Under the pieces are notes generated by a model. It was given only the letters and a program-made list of their open reading frames with translations, did not search any database and was not told the DNA's origin. This document shows positions 8,343 to 24,939 of a DNA stretch of 24,939 bases, one piece after another; position 1 is the stretch's first letter; every line of letters begins with the position of its first letter. This DNA is from Abditibacteriaceae bacterium (GTDB taxonomy: Bacteria; Armatimonadota; Abditibacteriia; Abditibacteriales; Abditibacteriaceae), in contig JANPJS010000319.1 in NCBI GenBank assembly GCA_031425655.1, forward strand, positions 1 to 24,939, in the 5' to 3' direction. Position numbers and translations under genes: made by a program.

Positions 8343-9203
8343 ATGCAACGTCGCCATGTTTTTCTCGCCGGTTTGCTGGTTTTAACTTTGAGCGGAGCGC
8401 GCCTCATCGCGCAGGCTCCGACCGAAAATAGCGACGGCCCGGACGAAGCCGGCAAAGAATTCATGGCTTATCTGGCGCGTCAGGATTTTGACAGCTTGAA
8501 AAATATCGTGGCGCGCGATTCGTTTCGTCAACTCGGCGATGACGGTGTGAATGCGCTGCTCCATGATTTGCGTTTGGTGCCCGACCGCTGGACGGCGACG
8601 ACCGATGAAAAAGGTGACAGCTCCGTAACCCCGATTTTCGACGCAAAACCTGTGGTTTGCCGGAAAGAAGGCCCGTTTTGGCGCGTGGACGCCATCGCAA
8701 CGACCGTGCGCTGGCGAAAATTAGATGCTATCGCCGGGGCGCGGCGCATCGTGCGCGATTATTCGACGCTGCCTCAATTCGGCTCCGAATCACGCGCGAC
8801 GTGCCTGTCTAACCTTCAATCCATCGCTCTGGCAATGCGCCAATATCAGCAGGATTACAAAGACGCTTTTCCGCCCGCACCGCGCTGGAACGAGAGTCTG
8901 GCGCCCTATGTGCGCAATGAAAAAGTGTTTCACTGTCCGGCTGCCGGCAAGCAGGTTTACGGCTACGCCATGAATTCAAAACTTCCCAACCGCCCGCCCG
9001 CCGCCGCGTCGGCCTTAGCCGTCATTTACGAAAGCGCGAGGTTGGAGCGCAACGCTCATGACGCCGGACAGAATTTAGTTTTTCGCCACGAAGAGCGCAC
9101 TCACGCCCTTTTCAGCGATGGCACGGTTCGCCCTTTATTACGGCCTCGCAAACCGCCGTTTCAACTGCCGAAAGGGCCACCCGGCGATAAATCGCCGGGC
9201 TGA
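8343..9203 (+). CDS. Secreted protein with C-terminal DUF1559-like/H-X9-DG domain
   Basis: Signal peptide ending IAQA; CLSNLQSIALAMRQYQQDY, FHCP, YGYAMN and RH-EERTHALFS-DG (H-X9-DG); no prepilin GFTLIE motif. Confidence 0.8.
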   Translation: MQRRHVFLAGLLVLTLSGARLIAQAPTENSDGPDEAGKEFMAYLARQDFDSLKNIVARDSFRQLGDDGVNALLHDLRLVPDRWTATTDEKGDSSVTPIFDAKPVVCRKEGPFWRVDAIATTVRWRKLDAIAGARRIVRDYSTLPQFGSESRATCLSNLQSIALAMRQYQQDYKDAFPPAPRWNESLAPYVRNEKVFHCPAAGKQVYGYAMNSKLPNRPPAAASALAVIYESARLERNAHDAGQNLVFRHEERTHALFSDGTVRPLLRPRKPPFQLPKGPPGDKSPG

Positions 9204-9400
9204 AAGACCAAGCCTCTTCGAGGCTCACCAAAACACCGTTCCTACAGCCCCGCAGCACAGGCGCGTAGCACAGCCCCGCAGGGGCTTTGTATTTCAGCCC
9301 GGCGATTTATCGCCGGGCGGCACAAGCACAAGGAGATGGAGGGAGCGAGTCGCAACGCGGCTCTTGGCACCGCTACCATAGTTTCACCGCGTGATAGGAG
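9172..9400. mobile_element. Family-B MITE copy lacking its left end, with REP-doublet cargo
   Basis: Arms 9176-9208 and 9289-9321 match 17206-17238/17322-17354; 3' part GAGTCGCAACGCG...CCGCTACCA.AGTTTCACCG matches 15423-15476. Confidence 0.85.
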
Positions 9401-9411
9401 TTATCAAGCCA

Positions 9412-11382: not shown

Positions 11383-11499
11383 ATCCCGCTCCGGTGTGCG
11401 CGGATTATACCCGCGCTTGCTGCTGAGGCTTAAATACGTTGGCTATATCATATCACGCCGCGCGGGTTTTTGCCCTGAATCCACGTGTGGAAAGGTTAA

Positions 11500-11682
11500 G
11501 AGTCAGTGCTCAAAAAAAGTTATTCAGTCCGTTGCCATTGAATGGCAAAAAATTGAGTGGCAAAAAAGGGTGAGAAAGTGGGATTTCTCATCCGAAATGC
11601 CATTGACGCCCTTATTTTTTGCCACTCAATTTTTTGCCATCGGGTCGTTTTTACCCCAATAATTTTATTCGAGCACAGACTC
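11500..11682. mobile_element. MITE family A copy 2 (shell inverted relative to copy 1)
   Basis: 25-bp TIRs (21/25), TAA at 11497-11499 and 11683-11685, perfect 26-bp internal inverted repeat 11542-11567/11615-11640. Confidence 0.85.
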
Positions 11683-14180
11683 TAAGATTTCGCATCGCCC
11701 GGCTCGCGCGTGCCGGCAGGCAGCGCCAGCATATCTTCGGCGCCGTCCTCGGCCAATGCCTGAGCGCCCGTCGTGAGTTCGCCGGCAGACGGCGTAATCG
11801 GCGAGGGCAACTGCCGGCCCCAGTGCTTGTCTTGCTCCGGCGCGCCTTTCAAGCCATGCACGATGAAAACTTCCACATCCTGCGATTTGCCTTTGATGGA
11901 AGCGCCTTTTGGTTCGGCCTCAACAATGCCGCCCGCCGCCTCGTAAGTGGCCGCCGAACACATGATCCATGAGCCGAACTCTTTGTTTTTGCCTTCCAAA
12001 CGCGAGGCTAAGTTGACTGTATCGCCCAACGCGGTGTAGTTGAAATGATTGGCTTTTTCGGCTCCGATGGCGCCCGCGATCATTTCGCCGGTATGGACGC
12101 CGACGCGCATATAAAACTCCACGCCGGTTTCCTCGCGGAAGCGGGCGCACTCTTCCTGCATGGCGATGGCGCATAAAAGCGCCTGGGCCGCGTGATCGTA
12201 GCGCGGCAAAGGAAAGCCGAAAAACGCCATCACCGAATCGCCGATATATTTGTCCACGTTGCCGCCGTGTGCGTTGACAATCGTCACCATGCGGTCGAAG
12301 TAATCGTTCAAGGCTTCGACGACTTCTTCCGGCTCGTGCTCTTCCGAGTAACTGGTGAAGCCTTCCAGGTCGGTAAACAGCATCGTCGCCGTCAGACGAC
12401 GCGGGCGCACATATTGGTTTTCCGGCTGCGCCAGAATTTCGTCGCGCACTTCGGGCGACATGAAACTGCCCAATTGGGCGATGGTTTTACGCCGCTCGAT
12501 GGTTTCCGCCGCAAAAAGCAGCATTAAAACCGTCGCCGATGTCAAAGCCGCGCTTACGCCGGGATACACGGTAATAACCCAGAGGTTTTTCACCAGAAAA
12601 AGCATTTTGCCGGCTTGCCAGAACAAAATCAGCGGCAATGAAACCAAAAGCGCGTAAACACTGAACCAGAGCCACGAATGCAGCCACCAGCCCAGTCCAA
12701 CTTTGCTGGCTTTTTTCTGCATCGTGCGCGCCAGATTGTTCACCCAGCCGCGTAATATGACCGTCCACAGGCAGGCGATTAACGACAAACCGTAAATGCT
12801 GGCGATTGTCCAATGCGGCGCGATGGTGCGGATAAAAGCGCCATCAAGGAACATGGCCGCGACCGTGGCATGAAGTTCGACACCGGAAATTTTTGCCTCG
12901 GCGCGTCCAAATCCGCTTTTCCGTGCGCCCTGTTCTAAAAAGAGCGGCATGGAGAAGTTGTCCTTCAAAATATGAGCGGTCGCTCCCACGAAAACGATGC
13001 GGTCTTGAAAATGCTTTTTCAAATCCGCGTCACTGTAACCTGAAGTCCGCACGCGGTTGTTTTCGTCTACTTCCTCGACGCCAAGCACCGCCGAATAAGA
13101 ATACGTGTTAAAGGTGCCGGGTGGCCCCCACCAATGAATGGGCGTTGTGAAATAAACCGGAGAAGTCGGCAATGACGGCAAATTCAAGGTCAGCGGCACG
13201 GGCCGCGCCGCGCCGTTCAGCGTGGGCCAGACGCCCTTTTTCAAAGCGGTTTCGTAGCGACCATCGGGCCGCGCATCCACCATCTTTTGATACGTCGCGG
13301 CGGCTAAAATGCCGACACCACCGATATTCACGCTGCGATCATTAAATTCGCCGCGAAAAGGATAGCGCCGAGCGCTGTCGTCCAAATCATAAGGCAAATA
13401 GTTGATGCCCAAATCGGGAGTTTGCTCATCTAAGCCTAAGCCACTGAATGTTTCGTAGGCTCGCTTTAATTTCGGATCGCTCTGCAATTCCTTGCGATGG
13501 ATTGCCGCCCACTGGTCGTAATCGCTTTGCGCTAATGGCGAATTCAGCGAGATCATCATGGCCGTGGCGGCGGCGCCGGCCCGGCTCTCCTCCATCGTGT
13601 CGAACGAAGGGAGAATCACGTTGCCGGCATCGGCCATTGCTTGCGCTAAGGTCGCGTCTGCAATGATGTCGCGCTTGTCGTTGAAATCGAAGTCGAGGAC
13701 GATGACTTTGGCGCCAGCTTTTTTCAAGCGGCTAACCAGACGGGCGTGCCATTCGCGCGGCCACGGCCAGGTTTCGTAAGAATTGAGCGATTTTTGGTCT
13801 ACTCCGACAATCGCAATTTTGTCATAACAAGCGGGCACGCGCGGCCCGCGATTGGTGAAGCGCGAATCGTAAAGGCGAAGCTCCAGACTTTCCAGATTTT
13901 GCCAGAAAGGCAGCCACCATTCGGCTTCGCGCGCCCGCGCATAGCGCCCCTCGAAGTGCTGAGCTTGCAGCACGAAAAACTGCGAGATGATAAGCGCGAT
14001 GATAATGGCCGCCATTTCGAGCCGGCGCGCTTGAATCCAGGCGCCAAAGTGAAAGCGCAACGAATCGGGCTTTGGCGCGCGAGGCGTGCGCCGCGCACGC
14101 TGGCGATCCGCTTCCGCTTCGGGCAGCGACCGCGTGCCTCTTCGTCCCAGACTCCGGTTTTTGCGAGATTCATCGCTCAT
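11682..14180 (-). CDS. CHASE2-domain transmembrane class III adenylate cyclase
   Basis: CHASE2 motifs IAIVGVDQKSL, WPWPR, DRIVFVGAT, GVELHA; TM helices; cyclase motifs LFTDLEGFT, VDKYIGDSVMAFFG, NYTALGDTVNLASRLE (Lys/Thr pattern of adenylate specificity). Confidence 0.95.
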   Translation of the reverse strand: MSDESRKNRSLGRRGTRSLPEAEADRQRARRTPRAPKPDSLRFHFGAWIQARRLEMAAIIIALIISQFFVLQAQHFEGRYARAREAEWWLPFWQNLESLELRLYDSRFTNRGPRVPACYDKIAIVGVDQKSLNSYETWPWPREWHARLVSRLKKAGAKVIVLDFDFNDKRDIIADATLAQAMADAGNVILPSFDTMEESRAGAAATAMMISLNSPLAQSDYDQWAAIHRKELQSDPKLKRAYETFSGLGLDEQTPDLGINYLPYDLDDSARRYPFRGEFNDRSVNIGGVGILAAATYQKMVDARPDGRYETALKKGVWPTLNGAARPVPLTLNLPSLPTSPVYFTTPIHWWGPPGTFNTYSYSAVLGVEEVDENNRVRTSGYSDADLKKHFQDRIVFVGATAHILKDNFSMPLFLEQGARKSGFGRAEAKISGVELHATVAAMFLDGAFIRTIAPHWTIASIYGLSLIACLWTVILRGWVNNLARTMQKKASKVGLGWWLHSWLWFSVYALLVSLPLILFWQAGKMLFLVKNLWVITVYPGVSAALTSATVLMLLFAAETIERRKTIAQLGSFMSPEVRDEILAQPENQYVRPRRLTATMLFTDLEGFTSYSEEHEPEEVVEALNDYFDRMVTIVNAHGGNVDKYIGDSVMAFFGFPLPRYDHAAQALLCAIAMQEECARFREETGVEFYMRVGVHTGEMIAGAIGAEKANHFNYTALGDTVNLASRLEGKNKEFGSWIMCSAATYEAAGGIVEAEPKGASIKGKSQDVEVFIVHGLKGAPEQDKHWGRQLPSPITPSAGELTTGAQALAEDGAEDMLALPAGTREPGDAKS

Positions 14181-15301: not shown

Positions 15302-15476
15302 CTCACCTTACGCGGTCGAGGTGTGGTAAGGGCCACCCAGCGATAAATCGCCGGGTGGCCCAAGTGGCACAAGCACAAGGCGATGGGGTTCTCAGGCCTT
15401 TGCTCTGGTTGGTGGAGGCAGTGAGTCGCAACGCGACTCTGGGCACCGCTACCAGAGTTTCACCGTGTAAAGTGAG
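15302..15476. mobile_element. Family-B MITE copy with collapsed single-hairpin cargo
   Basis: Left end CTCACCTTACGCGGT, right end ACCGTGTAAAGTGAG (13/15 complementary); single GGCCACCC.GCGATAAATCGCCGGGTGGCC hairpin at 15331-15360; no clean TSD. Confidence 0.8.
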
Positions 15477-15950: not shown

Positions 15951-17144
15951 ATGAAGTCCGATTCTCAAGAAACGCCCTTCGATTCGCAAATGAGCGACGA
16001 TTTGCAATCGCGCCGCGCCGTGCCGACTCACGTCCCGGTTCGCATCGGCCCATCCGCATCGCCGGCGGATGATTCACCCGTTGCACCGCCCCTTGTCGCG
16101 CCGGTTACAGCGCCGCCAACTCCCCAACCGCCTTACGTCGCCTCGCCCGCGCCGGCTAAAGAAGGCGTTCCGATGCCGGTTATTCTTGGCTTGGCGATGG
16201 CATTAGGCGCGATTTGCGTGGTCGCCGCGTCCATCGGAATGCGGCGCGTGATTAAGCCGGTGGCTCCGGTCAATTCGACGGTCGTCGCACCGCCACGCGG
16301 CAATGTCGTGATGCAAAGCCCCGAACTCGTAATTAAACATCCCACAGCGCTGGCCACGCCAACTTCGCCCCCGCAAGTCGAAACCAGCGTGTCGGAAGCC
16401 ACGCCATCGGTCGAAATCAGCGAATTGCCGCCGATCACGCCGTCTGAGGAACCAACATCGGCTGCACCAAAAACGCCGCGCGATGCACGTCCAAACTCTA
16501 ATTCCACGTCGCCCACCGATTCGCCTTCACCACTTGAAAAAGCAGCTTCGCCCGACGTTTATCCGCCGACCGACACGCATCGCGGTAACCGCTTTGAGAT
16601 TACTCCGCCGCCCGGCTTCCGCCTGCGCCAAAGTGGACGTCGCACTATCTGGCAGCGCGACGACGGCGCACAAATCTTAGTCGAAACGGGCAAAGCCGGC
16701 GACGGCTCGCCGCGCGCCGGATGGCAAAAGCTCGACCGCGATTTGGCCCGGCGCTACGGAAAACGCTATCGCTCAATGGGTATTCACGAAGGCACCTTAG
16801 CCGGTCAACCGGCGGCGATCTGGGAATTCGAGCTAACCGGCAAAGACGGCATCACGCGCCGCAAAATAGACGTGGGCATCAAAATCAATGGTCGCGGCTA
16901 CGCCGTGCTGGGCGCCGCACCGAAAGATAAATTCGACAGCATACGCGACGACATCGAACAAGCTCTCGGCTCGTTTCGCGTCAGCGAATCCAACGATTCG
17001 CCGGAAGAAACCGAAAACGATACGCCGCGCGCCAAACCGCGCCCGCGCCCGCGCTTGCGCCCCACGCCCGAACCGAGCGAAACGAATGGAATCAGCCCTC
17101 TGCCTCAGCCCGAATCAACCCTCGCCGCTGAACGAGGCTACTGA
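15951..17144 (+). CDS. Single-pass membrane protein with Pro-rich linkers and a PsbP/Mog1-like extracytoplasmic domain
   Basis: One TM (VILGLAMALGAICVVAASI); globular region FEITPPPGF...IWEF...GYAVLG...FD..IEQALGSF. Start at ATG 15951 preferred over TTG 15852. Confidence 0.72.
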   Translation: MKSDSQETPFDSQMSDDLQSRRAVPTHVPVRIGPSASPADDSPVAPPLVAPVTAPPTPQPPYVASPAPAKEGVPMPVILGLAMALGAICVVAASIGMRRVIKPVAPVNSTVVAPPRGNVVMQSPELVIKHPTALATPTSPPQVETSVSEATPSVEISELPPITPSEEPTSAAPKTPRDARPNSNSTSPTDSPSPLEKAASPDVYPPTDTHRGNRFEITPPPGFRLRQSGRRTIWQRDDGAQILVETGKAGDGSPRAGWQKLDRDLARRYGKRYRSMGIHEGTLAGQPAAIWEFELTGKDGITRRKIDVGIKINGRGYAVLGAAPKDKFDSIRDDIEQALGSFRVSESNDSPEETENDTPRAKPRPRPRLRPTPEPSETNGISPLPQPESTLAAERGY

Positions 17145-17464
17145 GAATTTAGAATGGAGAATGCAGAATTGAGAAGCTCACCTTACGCAGTAGGTTATGG
17201 TGAGCGCCACCCGGCGATAAATCACCGGGCTGAAACACCAAGCCTCTTCGAGGCTCACCCAAACACTGTTCGCACAGCCGCACAGCCGCGCGTCATAGTC
17301 CCGCAGCCCCGCAGGGGCTTTGTGTTTCAGCCCGGTGATTTATCGCCGGGTGGCACAAGCATAACGTGGCTCTTTGCAGCGCTTACCATAACCTACTGCG
17401 TAAGGTGAGTGAGAAGGTAAAAACCCAGCCTTTCTCAATTCTGCATTCTCCATTCTAAATTCTC
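17143..17464. repeat. Heptamer-periodic (AGAATNN) palindrome interrupted by a MITE
   Basis: 17143-17175 is the exact reverse complement of 17432-17464 (33/33). Confidence 0.9.
17177..17409. mobile_element. Complete family-B MITE with 31-bp TIRs, 7-bp TSD and REP-doublet cargo
   Basis: TIRs 17177-17207/17379-17409 (30/31); TGAGAAG duplicated at 17170-17176 and 17410-17416; inner perfect 33-bp inverted repeat 17206-17238/17322-17354. Confidence 0.9.
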
Positions 17465-17528
17465 TTAGATTGCTCCCATGTGATGAATCGGATAAACCCT
17501 TTGCGAATTCTCCACGGAAAAACATCAC

Positions 17529-18584
17529 ATGAAATATCGCATTGGCGTAATTGAGGGCGACGGCGTCGGCCCCGAAGTAGTGAGTTGGGGCGTCAGCATT
17601 TTAGAAGCGGCCTCGCGGCTGGGCGGCATAGAACTGGAGTTCGTCAAAGCGCCGGTCGGCGGCACGACGTTTCTCGAAACCGGCAAGGTTCTGCCGGAAG
17701 AATCGCTGCAAACGCTGCGCGGCTGCCACGCGATTCTTAAAGGCCCGATGGGACGCCCCGACATCGAAGCCGGCGTCGTCGAGCGCGACGGCATTTTGGC
17801 GCTGCGTCAAATTTTCGGACAATACGTTAATTTGCGTCCGGTGAAACTGTTTCGCGGCATCGAAGCGGCCAGCCCTCTCAAAGATGAACTGCTGCGCAAA
17901 GGCGTGGATTTCGTCATCGTGCGCGAAAACTCGGAAGGTCTGTATTCCCGCATGGGCGGCCTGACCGACACCAGCGCCACCGACATTAATCTTTTCACCG
18001 AGCGCGGCGTGCGGCGCATTCTTGAATTTGCGTTCGCCCTTGCGGAAAAGCGCGACAAACGCTTGATTTCCGTAGATAAAGCCAACGTTTTATCGGCCTC
18101 GCTGTTTTGGAGGCGCAAATTCGAGACGATGGCTGGGAGTCATCCCGACATCAAATGCTCGTCGCAGCTTGTGGATTCGTTCTGCCTGCTGGTTTTGCAA
18201 GACCCGTCGCCGGCACGCTGGGACGTGGTCGTGACCGACAATATGTTCGGCGACATTATCGCCGACGAGGCCGCCGCCATCGTCGGCAGTTTGGGCATGA
18301 GTCCGTCGGCGAATCTTAATCCCGGCGGCATCAGCATGGTTGAGCCGGTGCATGGCTCGGCGCCCGACATCGCCGGCAAAGGCATCGTCAACCCCTTAGC
18401 GACCATTCTTTCCTGCGCCCTGATGCTGCGCCACTGCTTCGACCGCGACGATTTAGCCGATAAAATCGAGCGCGCCGTGCAAAAGGCTTTGGACGAAGGT
18501 TTCCGCACGCAGGACATCGCCGCCGGCCAATCGGCCTGCACAACCGAGCAAATGGGAGAAGCCGTTTTGAAGCATTTGCTCTGA
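17529..18584 (+). CDS. leuB: 3-isopropylmalate dehydrogenase
   Basis: GDGVGPEV, ER..ILALRQ..NLRPV, VRENSEGLY, VDKANVL, DNMFGDI, EPVHGSAPDIAGKG. Confidence 0.9.
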   Translation: MKYRIGVIEGDGVGPEVVSWGVSILEAASRLGGIELEFVKAPVGGTTFLETGKVLPEESLQTLRGCHAILKGPMGRPDIEAGVVERDGILALRQIFGQYVNLRPVKLFRGIEAASPLKDELLRKGVDFVIVRENSEGLYSRMGGLTDTSATDINLFTERGVRRILEFAFALAEKRDKRLISVDKANVLSASLFWRRKFETMAGSHPDIKCSSQLVDSFCLLVLQDPSPARWDVVVTDNMFGDIIADEAAAIVGSLGMSPSANLNPGGISMVEPVHGSAPDIAGKGIVNPLATILSCALMLRHCFDRDDLADKIERAVQKALDEGFRTQDIAAGQSACTTEQMGEAVLKHLL

Positions 18585-24769: not shown

Positions 24770-24870
24770 GGGACACCTCAGTTTAATCTCTCGTCCTGCC
24801 CAGAGGGCACCCGACGCCAAGTCGCTAAGAAGCAGTCTGAAATGTCTGTCACGGAGTCCGGCAAAGGGTT

Positions 24871-24939
24871 TTGTCATTCTGAGCTTGCGAAGAATCTCAG
24901 CGTAATGGGTGCGAAAACGCCGAGATTCTTCGCAAGCTC
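24871..24939. repeat. GTCATTCTGAG...GAAGAATCTC palindromic repeat, truncated by window end
   Basis: GAGCTTGCGAAGAATCTC (24881-24898) is the exact reverse complement of 24922-24939. Confidence 0.85.

Follow-up and report, generated by a model that had tools for sequence, protein, structure and literature searches.

The region ahead of a leuB-like gene in the window (the whole 24,939-nt stretch of DNA analyzed here) is probably a stack of selfish repeats in three layers, in which a 233-bp carrier of a REP doublet, ended by insertion sequence (IS) termini, moved as one unit into an existing heptamer palindrome, in a genome where hairpins have probably been capped by such ends repeatedly. A sequence-only reading of the same DNA had described a four-level nested palindrome. 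The nesting is genuine, but it has three layers: positions 1-46 of the Acido-Lenti-1 model span hairpin A, the linker and hairpin B, so the small hairpin that had been counted as a separate fourth level belongs to each REP arm as its second hairpin. The two small hairpins, which had been taken for tetraloops, are 6-bp stems with 3-nt loops (AGCCTC-TTC-GAGGCT and AGCCCC-GCA-GGGGCT).

Architecture of the nested array

The outer layer, the oldest in our reconstruction, is formed by two arms of AGAATNN heptamers (17143-17175, plus strand; 17432-17464, minus strand) that are complementary at 33/33 positions, as had been reported. The first 2 nt of the left arm lie inside the upstream stop codon (TGA, 17142-17144) and the array ends 64 nt ahead of the ATG at 17529, in agreement with its proposed placement. 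Within this palindrome lies the 233-bp element (17177-17409), which has no ORF of note and whose TIRs match cognate IS ends. We confirmed that the left TIR (17177-17207, plus strand), a near-exact copy of the right one (17379-17409, minus strand), pairs with it at 30/31 positions, the mismatch falling at 17202. The TGAGAAG target-site duplication had also been placed correctly; its copies, both on the plus strand, occupy 17170-17176, where arm meets loop in the heptamer palindrome, and 17410-17416. The remainder of the palindrome's original loop follows at 17417-17431 (plus strand).

The innermost layer comprises a left REP arm (17206-17255, plus strand; hairpin A at 17210-17229, a linker, hairpin B at 17241-17255), a spacer (17256-17304, plus strand) whose first 16 nt mark the MITE-borne subfamily, and a right REP arm (17305-17354, minus strand; hairpin B at 17305-17319, hairpin A at 17331-17350). 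The perfect inner pairing noted before was reproduced (33/33 between 17206-17238 and 17322-17354) and stands at 46/50 across the full 50-nt arm. The right REP arm is joined to the right TIR by a linker (17355-17378), identical in the siblings on contigs C326 and C23, that consists of the REP flank ACAAGCA and then an IS left-end remnant extending to the purine-rich stretch that precedes the transposase ATG (17369-17378, minus-strand reading). All three layers also occur singly in the genome, which bears out the claim that they are independent families. Elsewhere in the window are a sibling REP doublet with the same spacer (9174-9404; right IS end eroded, left end absent) and a sibling MITE with a single hairpin A (15302-15476; right end degenerate, no exact duplication).

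When the window was shuffled by codon blocks 30 times, its longest perfect inverted repeat came to 14-20 nt. A fold of the array as RNA, a check named in the sequence-only reading, gave a predicted -214.5 kcal/mol for the 322-nt rod (z = -24), a stability that arises because the layers are nested. Misassembly of the locus was rejected, since error-free Logan contigs of run X1 (records 2 and 5) cross both junctions without mismatch; as X1 may be the source data, these contigs argue only against local misassembly.

Removal of the MITE and one copy of the duplication leaves a site that is predicted to fold as a single plain hairpin (-55.9 kcal/mol) with a 16-nt loop, which upholds the proposed order of insertion, the MITE entering a pre-existing heptamer palindrome. 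The loop is 7-18 nt in 11/12 sister palindromes; the heptamer family comprises 52 arms and 12 inverted pairs in this genome, and arms are present also in genomes G001 and G003. The 17176-17417 joint of an empty allele was absent from the Logan contigs of runs X1-X4 (X2-X4 had no coverage of the site), and a search for an orthologous empty site found none, the same-genus genomes not holding the two flanking genes adjacent. Other joints were rejected as empty alleles, those at 17170/17177-17431 coming from sister heptamer palindromes and that at 17416-17168 from contig C86.

The 233-bp element and its parent insertion sequence

The 233-bp element is a MITE. It is short and non-coding, has TIRs and a duplication of fixed length at many sites, and its ends and duplication are common to an autonomous IS whose ends occur in this genome and in relatives. 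The end motif YTSAYSTTACGCRG has 138 occurrences in the genome versus 3 in a reversed control, and a weight-matrix scan identified 193 strong ends and 52 pairs spanning 58-403 bp. The claimed 7-bp duplication holds beyond this locus: it is exact in 20/51 testable pairs, the flanks differing by at most one mismatch in 27/51 and by at least two in 24/51, compared with a mean of 0.5 and a maximum of 5 exact duplications in 20,000 flank shuffles. Seven base pairs is also the modal length (duplications of 4, 5 and 6 bp numbered 1, 1 and 4, and those of 8-10 bp 0), and the family's duplication consensus is TTANTAA.

Bacterial MITEs such as Nezha, RUP, Correia/NEMIS and ERIC, in the accessible text of PMC3184786 and PMC3733652, are alike in being 70-300 bp long, non-coding, intergenic and strongly folding, and in sharing TIRs and a duplication with an IS that acts in trans. 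Unlike those elements as described there, one set of IS ends here encloses several unrelated, free-living hairpin families. The right TIR is 93-95% identical over 40-44 nt to MITE arms around different cargo (contigs C286, C191 and C259), and the right arm of the 233-bp MITE can be aligned with the IS left end as far as the bases preceding the transposase ATG. Within five IS copies the left end agrees with the right at 20-24/31 positions, versus 30/31 in this MITE; near-identical ends (at least 28/31) were found in 18/80 elements, the median being 22/31. Score-based sorting of MITE arms into left- or right-end origin was mostly ambiguous, the arm type of the 233-bp element being the only one to align convincingly (to the left end).

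The parent IS can be identified, seems to be recent, and survives as intact copies in relatives. Ten left ends, 99-100% identical and each opening a transposase reading frame, lie at contig breaks in this genome, as do twelve right ends, and an exact 7-mer joins 7/10 left ends to a right end. A Pfam DDE_Tnp_1 search of the genome returned 10 other transposases, the cognate one not among them; the IS body is unassembled here, so the activity of its transposase rests on the identity of the ends. Relatives hold five full IS copies of 1097-1174 bp (~1.13 kb), and an intact 360-aa protein from one of them (L050) matches both translated ends of this genome's IS, as judged by eye. Thus the search for a transposase gene that had been suggested yielded cognate ends and an intact transposase in a relative, but not this genome's own gene body.

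The sequence-only reading had likened the TIRs to the ends of IS4-family, ISPepr1-like elements. As given in the accessible part of PMC2266710, the ISPepr1 subgroup does share the 7-8-bp duplication, YT ends, the YREK motif and AT-rich targets, and the L050 ORF contains the complete motif as Y-QR-R-WKV-E-EYHKSL-K (Y-2-R-3-E-6-K). Size and HMM scores disagree: the same source gives ISPepr1 as 1.5-1.6 kb, and the L050 transposase scored at most 103.7 bits against IS4 HMMs, below the cut-off. The end signature YT-AA-YTT---A (Table 1 of PMC2266710) is incomplete in this IS, which has 6/8 defined positions by a count made by hand. Membership in ISPepr1 was set aside; the earlier comparison thus came close as regards behavior but is wrong or unproven as to family.

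The L050 transposase passes the NCBIfam model transpos_IS701_2 (NF049921; 328.7 bits, cut-off 250), a family counted with ISAba11-type elements among the nearest known systems, and falls below the cut-off of the IS701 HMM NF033540 (117 versus 150); it is 27% identical to ISAba11-family and 30% identical to ISCysp20-family transposases. IS701 as described in the accessible part of PMC2266710 has a 4-bp duplication, no Y of YREK and a length of 1.4-1.55 kb, whereas this IS has a 7-(8-)bp duplication, the Y, and a length of 1.1-1.2 kb. Multi-copy homologues with the common end CT(C/G)A..TTACGCA were found in Chthonomonadaceae, Caldilineaceae, Dehalococcoidia and Latescibacterota, and homologues in several phyla have 7-bp, sometimes 8-bp, duplications as read by eye. 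On these characters the clade appears to fit neither the IS701 nor the ISPepr1 definition, and we flag it for that reason.

Hairpin cargo of the MITE family

At least four hairpin families, unrelated to one another and present as free copies too, are found between the IS ends. By interior, the 52 elements divide into 23 with the GTCATTCTGAG hairpin family, 12 with the CCCCTCACCC/CCCCCAACCC families, 7 with 9-mer arms, 4 with the REP doublet, 3 with other interiors and 3 shells of 58-88 bp, and every cargo family has free loci in the genome as well. The other cargo families may be linked to GIY-YIG, DUF559 or GxxExxY genes. An internal palindrome is present in 41/49 longer elements versus 2.9% of intergenic 160-mers, a comparison in which the copies are not independent, and 49/49 interiors are unlike the IS body (best local score 26, three relative IS copies compared). 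The search pattern for SRM given in the accessible text of PMC11893778, applied with Ssn/SRM hairpins in mind as the identity of the commonest cargo, matched 0 of the 52 elements exactly and 1 with one mismatch.

End motifs are also found in relatives (117 in genome G012, 85 in G037 and 28 in G002). Short pairs sampled from G012, G037 and G009 numbered 28 among the matches listed, one of them mis-cut; within this set, 13/27 have a 7-bp duplication and 11/22 of the longer pairs have a palindromic interior, in which other repeat families are found. In the Latescibacterota genome of locus L095 (G125), 4/5 short pairs combine a local variant of the ends with perfect 7-bp duplications. Their GTCATTCTGAG-type interior was recognized by eye, the palindrome scores of 15-23 being under the threshold, and since the interiors are one family we count them as one event. 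Among the matches listed, genomes G123, G126 and G127 have only full-length pairs or single ends and G124 has one short pair that lacks a duplication; three of the five distant genomes with the IS have no short pairs among these matches.

Like a REP/REPIN, the innermost repeat is a multicopy, intergenic, inverted doublet able to form a hairpin. The REP arm has 52 matches at 29 loci in the genome and 0 in a reversed control. Its left and right copies in the 233-bp MITE score 18.1 and 25.9 bits (the latter with E 0.0011) against Acido-Lenti-1 (RF01687; described in PMC2864571, as far as that text is accessible), for which the gathering cut-off is 37; two sibling arms, one of them at 9272-9317, score 37.5. 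Canonical REP/REPIN systems with a Y1 transposase are alike in their inverted doublets of two-hairpin arms, present here at about 29 loci. They differ in that the GTAG/GTGG foot is absent from the arms here, a cognate Y1 gene is absent from the assembly, and this copy rides on a DDE-type MITE.

We kept 27 doublets or near-doublets from 38 clusters, having dropped 11 that were single hairpins or weak matches. The spacer of the 233-bp copy is common to 8/27. Remnants of IS ends accompany 7/8 doublets with this spacer versus 0/19 others (Fisher P = 9e-6); the ends of four of the seven were identified by score and those of three, which are eroded, by eye, and with the four scored doublets alone P is about 0.004 (calculated by hand). 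In a tree of 20/27 doublets, which left out 7 truncated free copies, the eight spacer doublets form a clade with support of 0.94 that is partly driven by the spacer itself. Together, the spacer marker and the clade suggest that one REP lineage acquired IS ends and was then dispersed along with them. For the REP, the earlier proposal that repeats insert into one another is not supported: we saw no sign that the REP entered the MITE at this locus, and the doublet is common to six IS-end-associated siblings. The siblings of this subfamily differ in arm variants and junctions, a point against the explanation we favor. From these comparisons, the REP doublet appears not to have inserted here but to be the inherited cargo of a small MITE subfamily.

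These observations bear on an unlikely alternative, a hierarchy of mutual targeting in which the hairpins' own nucleases (Y1 for REP) deliver them into empty IS shells and the structure of palindrome loops guides the IS transposase to them. The existence of 58-88-bp shells with no large cargo means that cargo could have entered shells rather than been capped; empty 86-88-bp shells on contigs C186 and C327 have perfect 7-bp duplications, although such shells may be deletion products between two apex hairpins. One cargo family has the shell's apex hairpin flanking the cargo on both sides. Against delivery into shells, the REP cargo goes back to a single spacer lineage and not to repeated insertions, and cargo carries flanking DNA that is known also beside free copies (C205, C193).

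The Y1 gene flanked by REP arms that had been proposed as a check was found for the repeat class and not for this genome. Acido-Lenti-1 is a dispersed repeat in 19/100 same-phylum genomes, with up to 54 matches, and RF01687 matches adjoin or bracket IS200-like Y1 genes at 5/29 loci examined, in 4 genomes (3/5 had been chosen for their spacing), which is in favor of mutual targeting. To its detriment, none of the six Y1 genes in this genome, whose assembly is fragmented, is flanked by this REP. Pattern searches of metagenomes for a Y1 gene next to the exact REP gave 0 and 3 loci, with no Y1. The placement of RF01687 repeats beside IS200-like Y1 genes resembles that of class 3 TnpA-Y1, which in Acidobacteria and Planctomycetes has atypical multicopy hairpins on its flanks according to the accessible text of 10.1101/279083; membership of the present repeats in class 3 is putative. 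We suggest that the Acido-Lenti-1 'sRNA' of Rfam may be a DNA repeat linked to Y1 transposases.

Origin, target choice and the leuB-like gene

In the explanation we favor, the DDE transposase of the IS would have moved the 233-bp element as one unit to the edge of the heptamer loop, generating the 7-bp duplication. MITEs of this kind would arise repeatedly when DNA of IS ends is linked to a hairpin repeat already present in the genome, and the capped hairpin would then spread by DDE transposition. Arms may be copied and shuffled through template switching or recombination across the long stem; a left TIR that reads as a 30/31 copy of the right one would fit arm copying. The IS prefers AT-rich, TTANTAA-like sites, which, in a genome of 57% GC, cluster in and around tandem-unit palindromes. 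Preference for AT-rich targets and tolerance of intergenic insertions likely account for most of the nesting, leaving a residual bias toward palindrome loops.

A further step is possible, and we put it forward tentatively: this IS clade builds MITEs from host hairpins, REPs thereby gain a DDE route, and the transposase favors palindrome loops, so that nesting feeds itself and has arisen independently in at least two phyla. If so, REP-type repeats, which normally depend on single-strand nucleases, would gain a second, DDE-driven means of spreading.

To our knowledge, the origin of bacterial MITEs whose interiors are unrelated to the parent IS is an open question. With an identifiable parent IS and interiors traceable to free repeat families, MITE origin and target choice become directly testable in this system. 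IS231 mobile cassettes show that transposon ends can mobilize foreign DNA, their passengers being genes that lie between complete elements. TIMEs and other non-autonomous mosaics (accessible text of PMC4133298) are alike in this ability, but TIME passengers are genes between whole elements whereas here non-coding host hairpins lie between bare ends. MITEs and REPs themselves, and the nesting of IS in REP and of REP in palindrome, are already known from PMC3184786, PMC3733652 and PMC3116915, in the parts available. Intergenic nesting of repeat in repeat is likewise described for REPs within longer palindromes and Neisseria mosaic elements (PMC3733652) and for insertion of IS1397 and IS621 into REPs (PMC3184786); as these texts describe them in their accessible parts, such cases differ from the present one, where the REP is enclosed by the IS ends and the whole carries a duplication of its own. 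The accessible literature, with most subscription journals and ISfinder outside its scope, does not describe several REP families enclosed by IS ends. What stands out here is that the same IS ends surround several unrelated hairpin families in this genome and one in another phylum, by which a transposon likely turns resident repeats mobile.

The choice of target was assessed at end flanks that were non-coding by our own gene calls. Heptamer arrays lie at 8/146 such flanks versus 1.6 expected (P = 2e-4). The expectation rises to 4.6-4.9 after motif matching (P = 0.10-0.12) and to 6.8 after AT matching, a control that is partly circular because AT-rich windows often are heptamers here; P over these controls ranges from 0.10 to 0.37. 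Of the claim that the repeat families target one another, the independence of the families stands, and the targeting is unproven, since the heptamer enrichment is not significant once TTANTAA is allowed for; the same result weighs against structure-guided insertion. Evidence in favor of the latter is that 6/30 reconstructed empty sites lie near the center of a long palindrome versus 4.8% of motif-weighted controls (P = 0.003; about 0.01 by hand with the 233-bp locus removed), and that further elements are nested within MITEs (C177, C259, C312 and L139). TGAGAAG agrees with 3/6 positions of the duplication consensus, so sequence preference explains the element's own site poorly. A bias toward palindrome loops, through targeting or survival, is possible.

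Ends also cluster: C86 has three of them in 320 bp, C326 has two MITEs separated by 14 bp, and mosaics of 367-403 bp occur. Such clusters, and the frequent origin of one element's two arms from different end variants (the median identity of 22/31), could instead reflect composite collapse, in which two IS or MITE copies flank a hairpin repeat and internal deletions leave the outer ends, with no capping step. We judge this quite improbable: each family would need two insertions and two precise deletions, non-palindromic DNA should have been captured too, yet most interiors are palindromes, long pairs (0.7-15 kb) with matching duplications did not turn up, and some elements have near-identical ends.

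A role for the 320-nt rod as a regulatory RNA element under selection, controlling the leuB-like gene, is very hard to credit, for although its fold is very stable and it sits between co-oriented genes, as do 36/44 MITEs with both neighbors called, a rod is absent from the leuB upstream regions of 14/14 relatives, four relatives that keep the gene order have another palindrome (two) or none (two) in the gap, and a promoter-like motif lies downstream of the rod. The reading of the rod as a conserved leuB regulatory RNA was rejected. The rod could shield or end the upstream transcript, yet it sits upstream of the predicted leuB promoter. We regard it as likely neutral, and the locus itself is probably neutral too.

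The gene concerned (17529-18584, plus strand) is a leuB-like member of the isopropylmalate/tartrate dehydrogenase family, under both leuB cut-offs in its best matches, NF002898 and TIGR00169 (328.6 < 393 and 321.9 < 353.2 bits). A strict sigma-70 scan gave no promoter match at this gene. The promoter-like motif (17470-17498, plus strand; TTG-N3, 17 nt, TAAAC), whose function we presume, is positioned 3' of the rod, which speaks against the rod being part of the leuB leader. A loose TTS-N3-N16-18-TAAAM pattern, for which no chance control was made, is present in 7/10 relatives. With the motif echoed in relatives, the leuB-like gene likely has its own promoter past the rod; the TAAA of this motif is invariant in 11/11 aligned upstream regions.

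Motif at the apex of hairpins

A motif of ~20 nt with the core CCCRRAGGGCRCCCG occurs 270 times across the host genome versus 0 times in the reversed control. The CCCRRAGGGCRCCCG motif stands where the loop or apex would be in many unrelated hairpin families, with examples at window 24799-24808 and at the loci L034, L035, L038, L137 and L149. A variant of this motif, present in 8 copies, takes the place of the apex of hairpin A of the REP arm in several of the sibling copies. The CCCRRAGGGCRCCCG motif is a true fourth layer, but elsewhere, as it is not present at this locus (window 17143-17464).

Repeats adjoining Y1 transposase genes

We observed that IS200-like Y1 transposase genes are adjoined by matches to the Rfam Acido-Lenti-1 "sRNA", mostly on both sides (L210, L211, L212, L199, L201). 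Because of this arrangement, we propose that Acido-Lenti-1 is likely a REP-type DNA repeat rather than an sRNA. Three Y1 genes of the host genome (L028, L029 and L031) are flanked by hairpin repeats of their own. As the hairpin flanking L028 scores 34 bits against Rfam CRISPR-DR28, that Rfam family may be a REP. The repeat type of L029 was found again within a MITE of a relative (L141).

Parent IS clade and associated MITEs

The NCBIfam label of the parent IS clade is IS701, yet its members have 7-8-bp duplications, a full YREK and a length of 1.1-1.2 kb (L050-L129 and host contig ends), and 446 stretches related to this clade are present in the genome collection. In two IS copies, L044 and L050, the right TIR contains the stop codon.

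The closest sibling of the MITE at this locus, L035 (G000:C86:7750-8065), sits within a cluster of three ends; the 7-mer in its right flank is identical to the duplication at this locus, and its left flank differs. Further TIR-like or palindromic elements are nested within MITEs at G000:C177:4968-5250, C312:20464-20830, C259:23510-23912 and L139. Another MITE of a relative, L157, contains part of its left end in three tandem copies.

Other repeats in the window and before leuB

Elsewhere in the window, a TIR-like element surrounds tandem-unit palindromes in two copies (1107-1317 and 11496-11687), and we found a second heptamer palindrome (2108-2165) and a GTCATTCTGAG-type hairpin (24881-24939). 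The contig opens with a MITE end (1-58). Inspection by eye of the orthologous gene junction before leuB in two relatives (L004, L008) showed that it is occupied by a different, 9-mer-armed palindrome.
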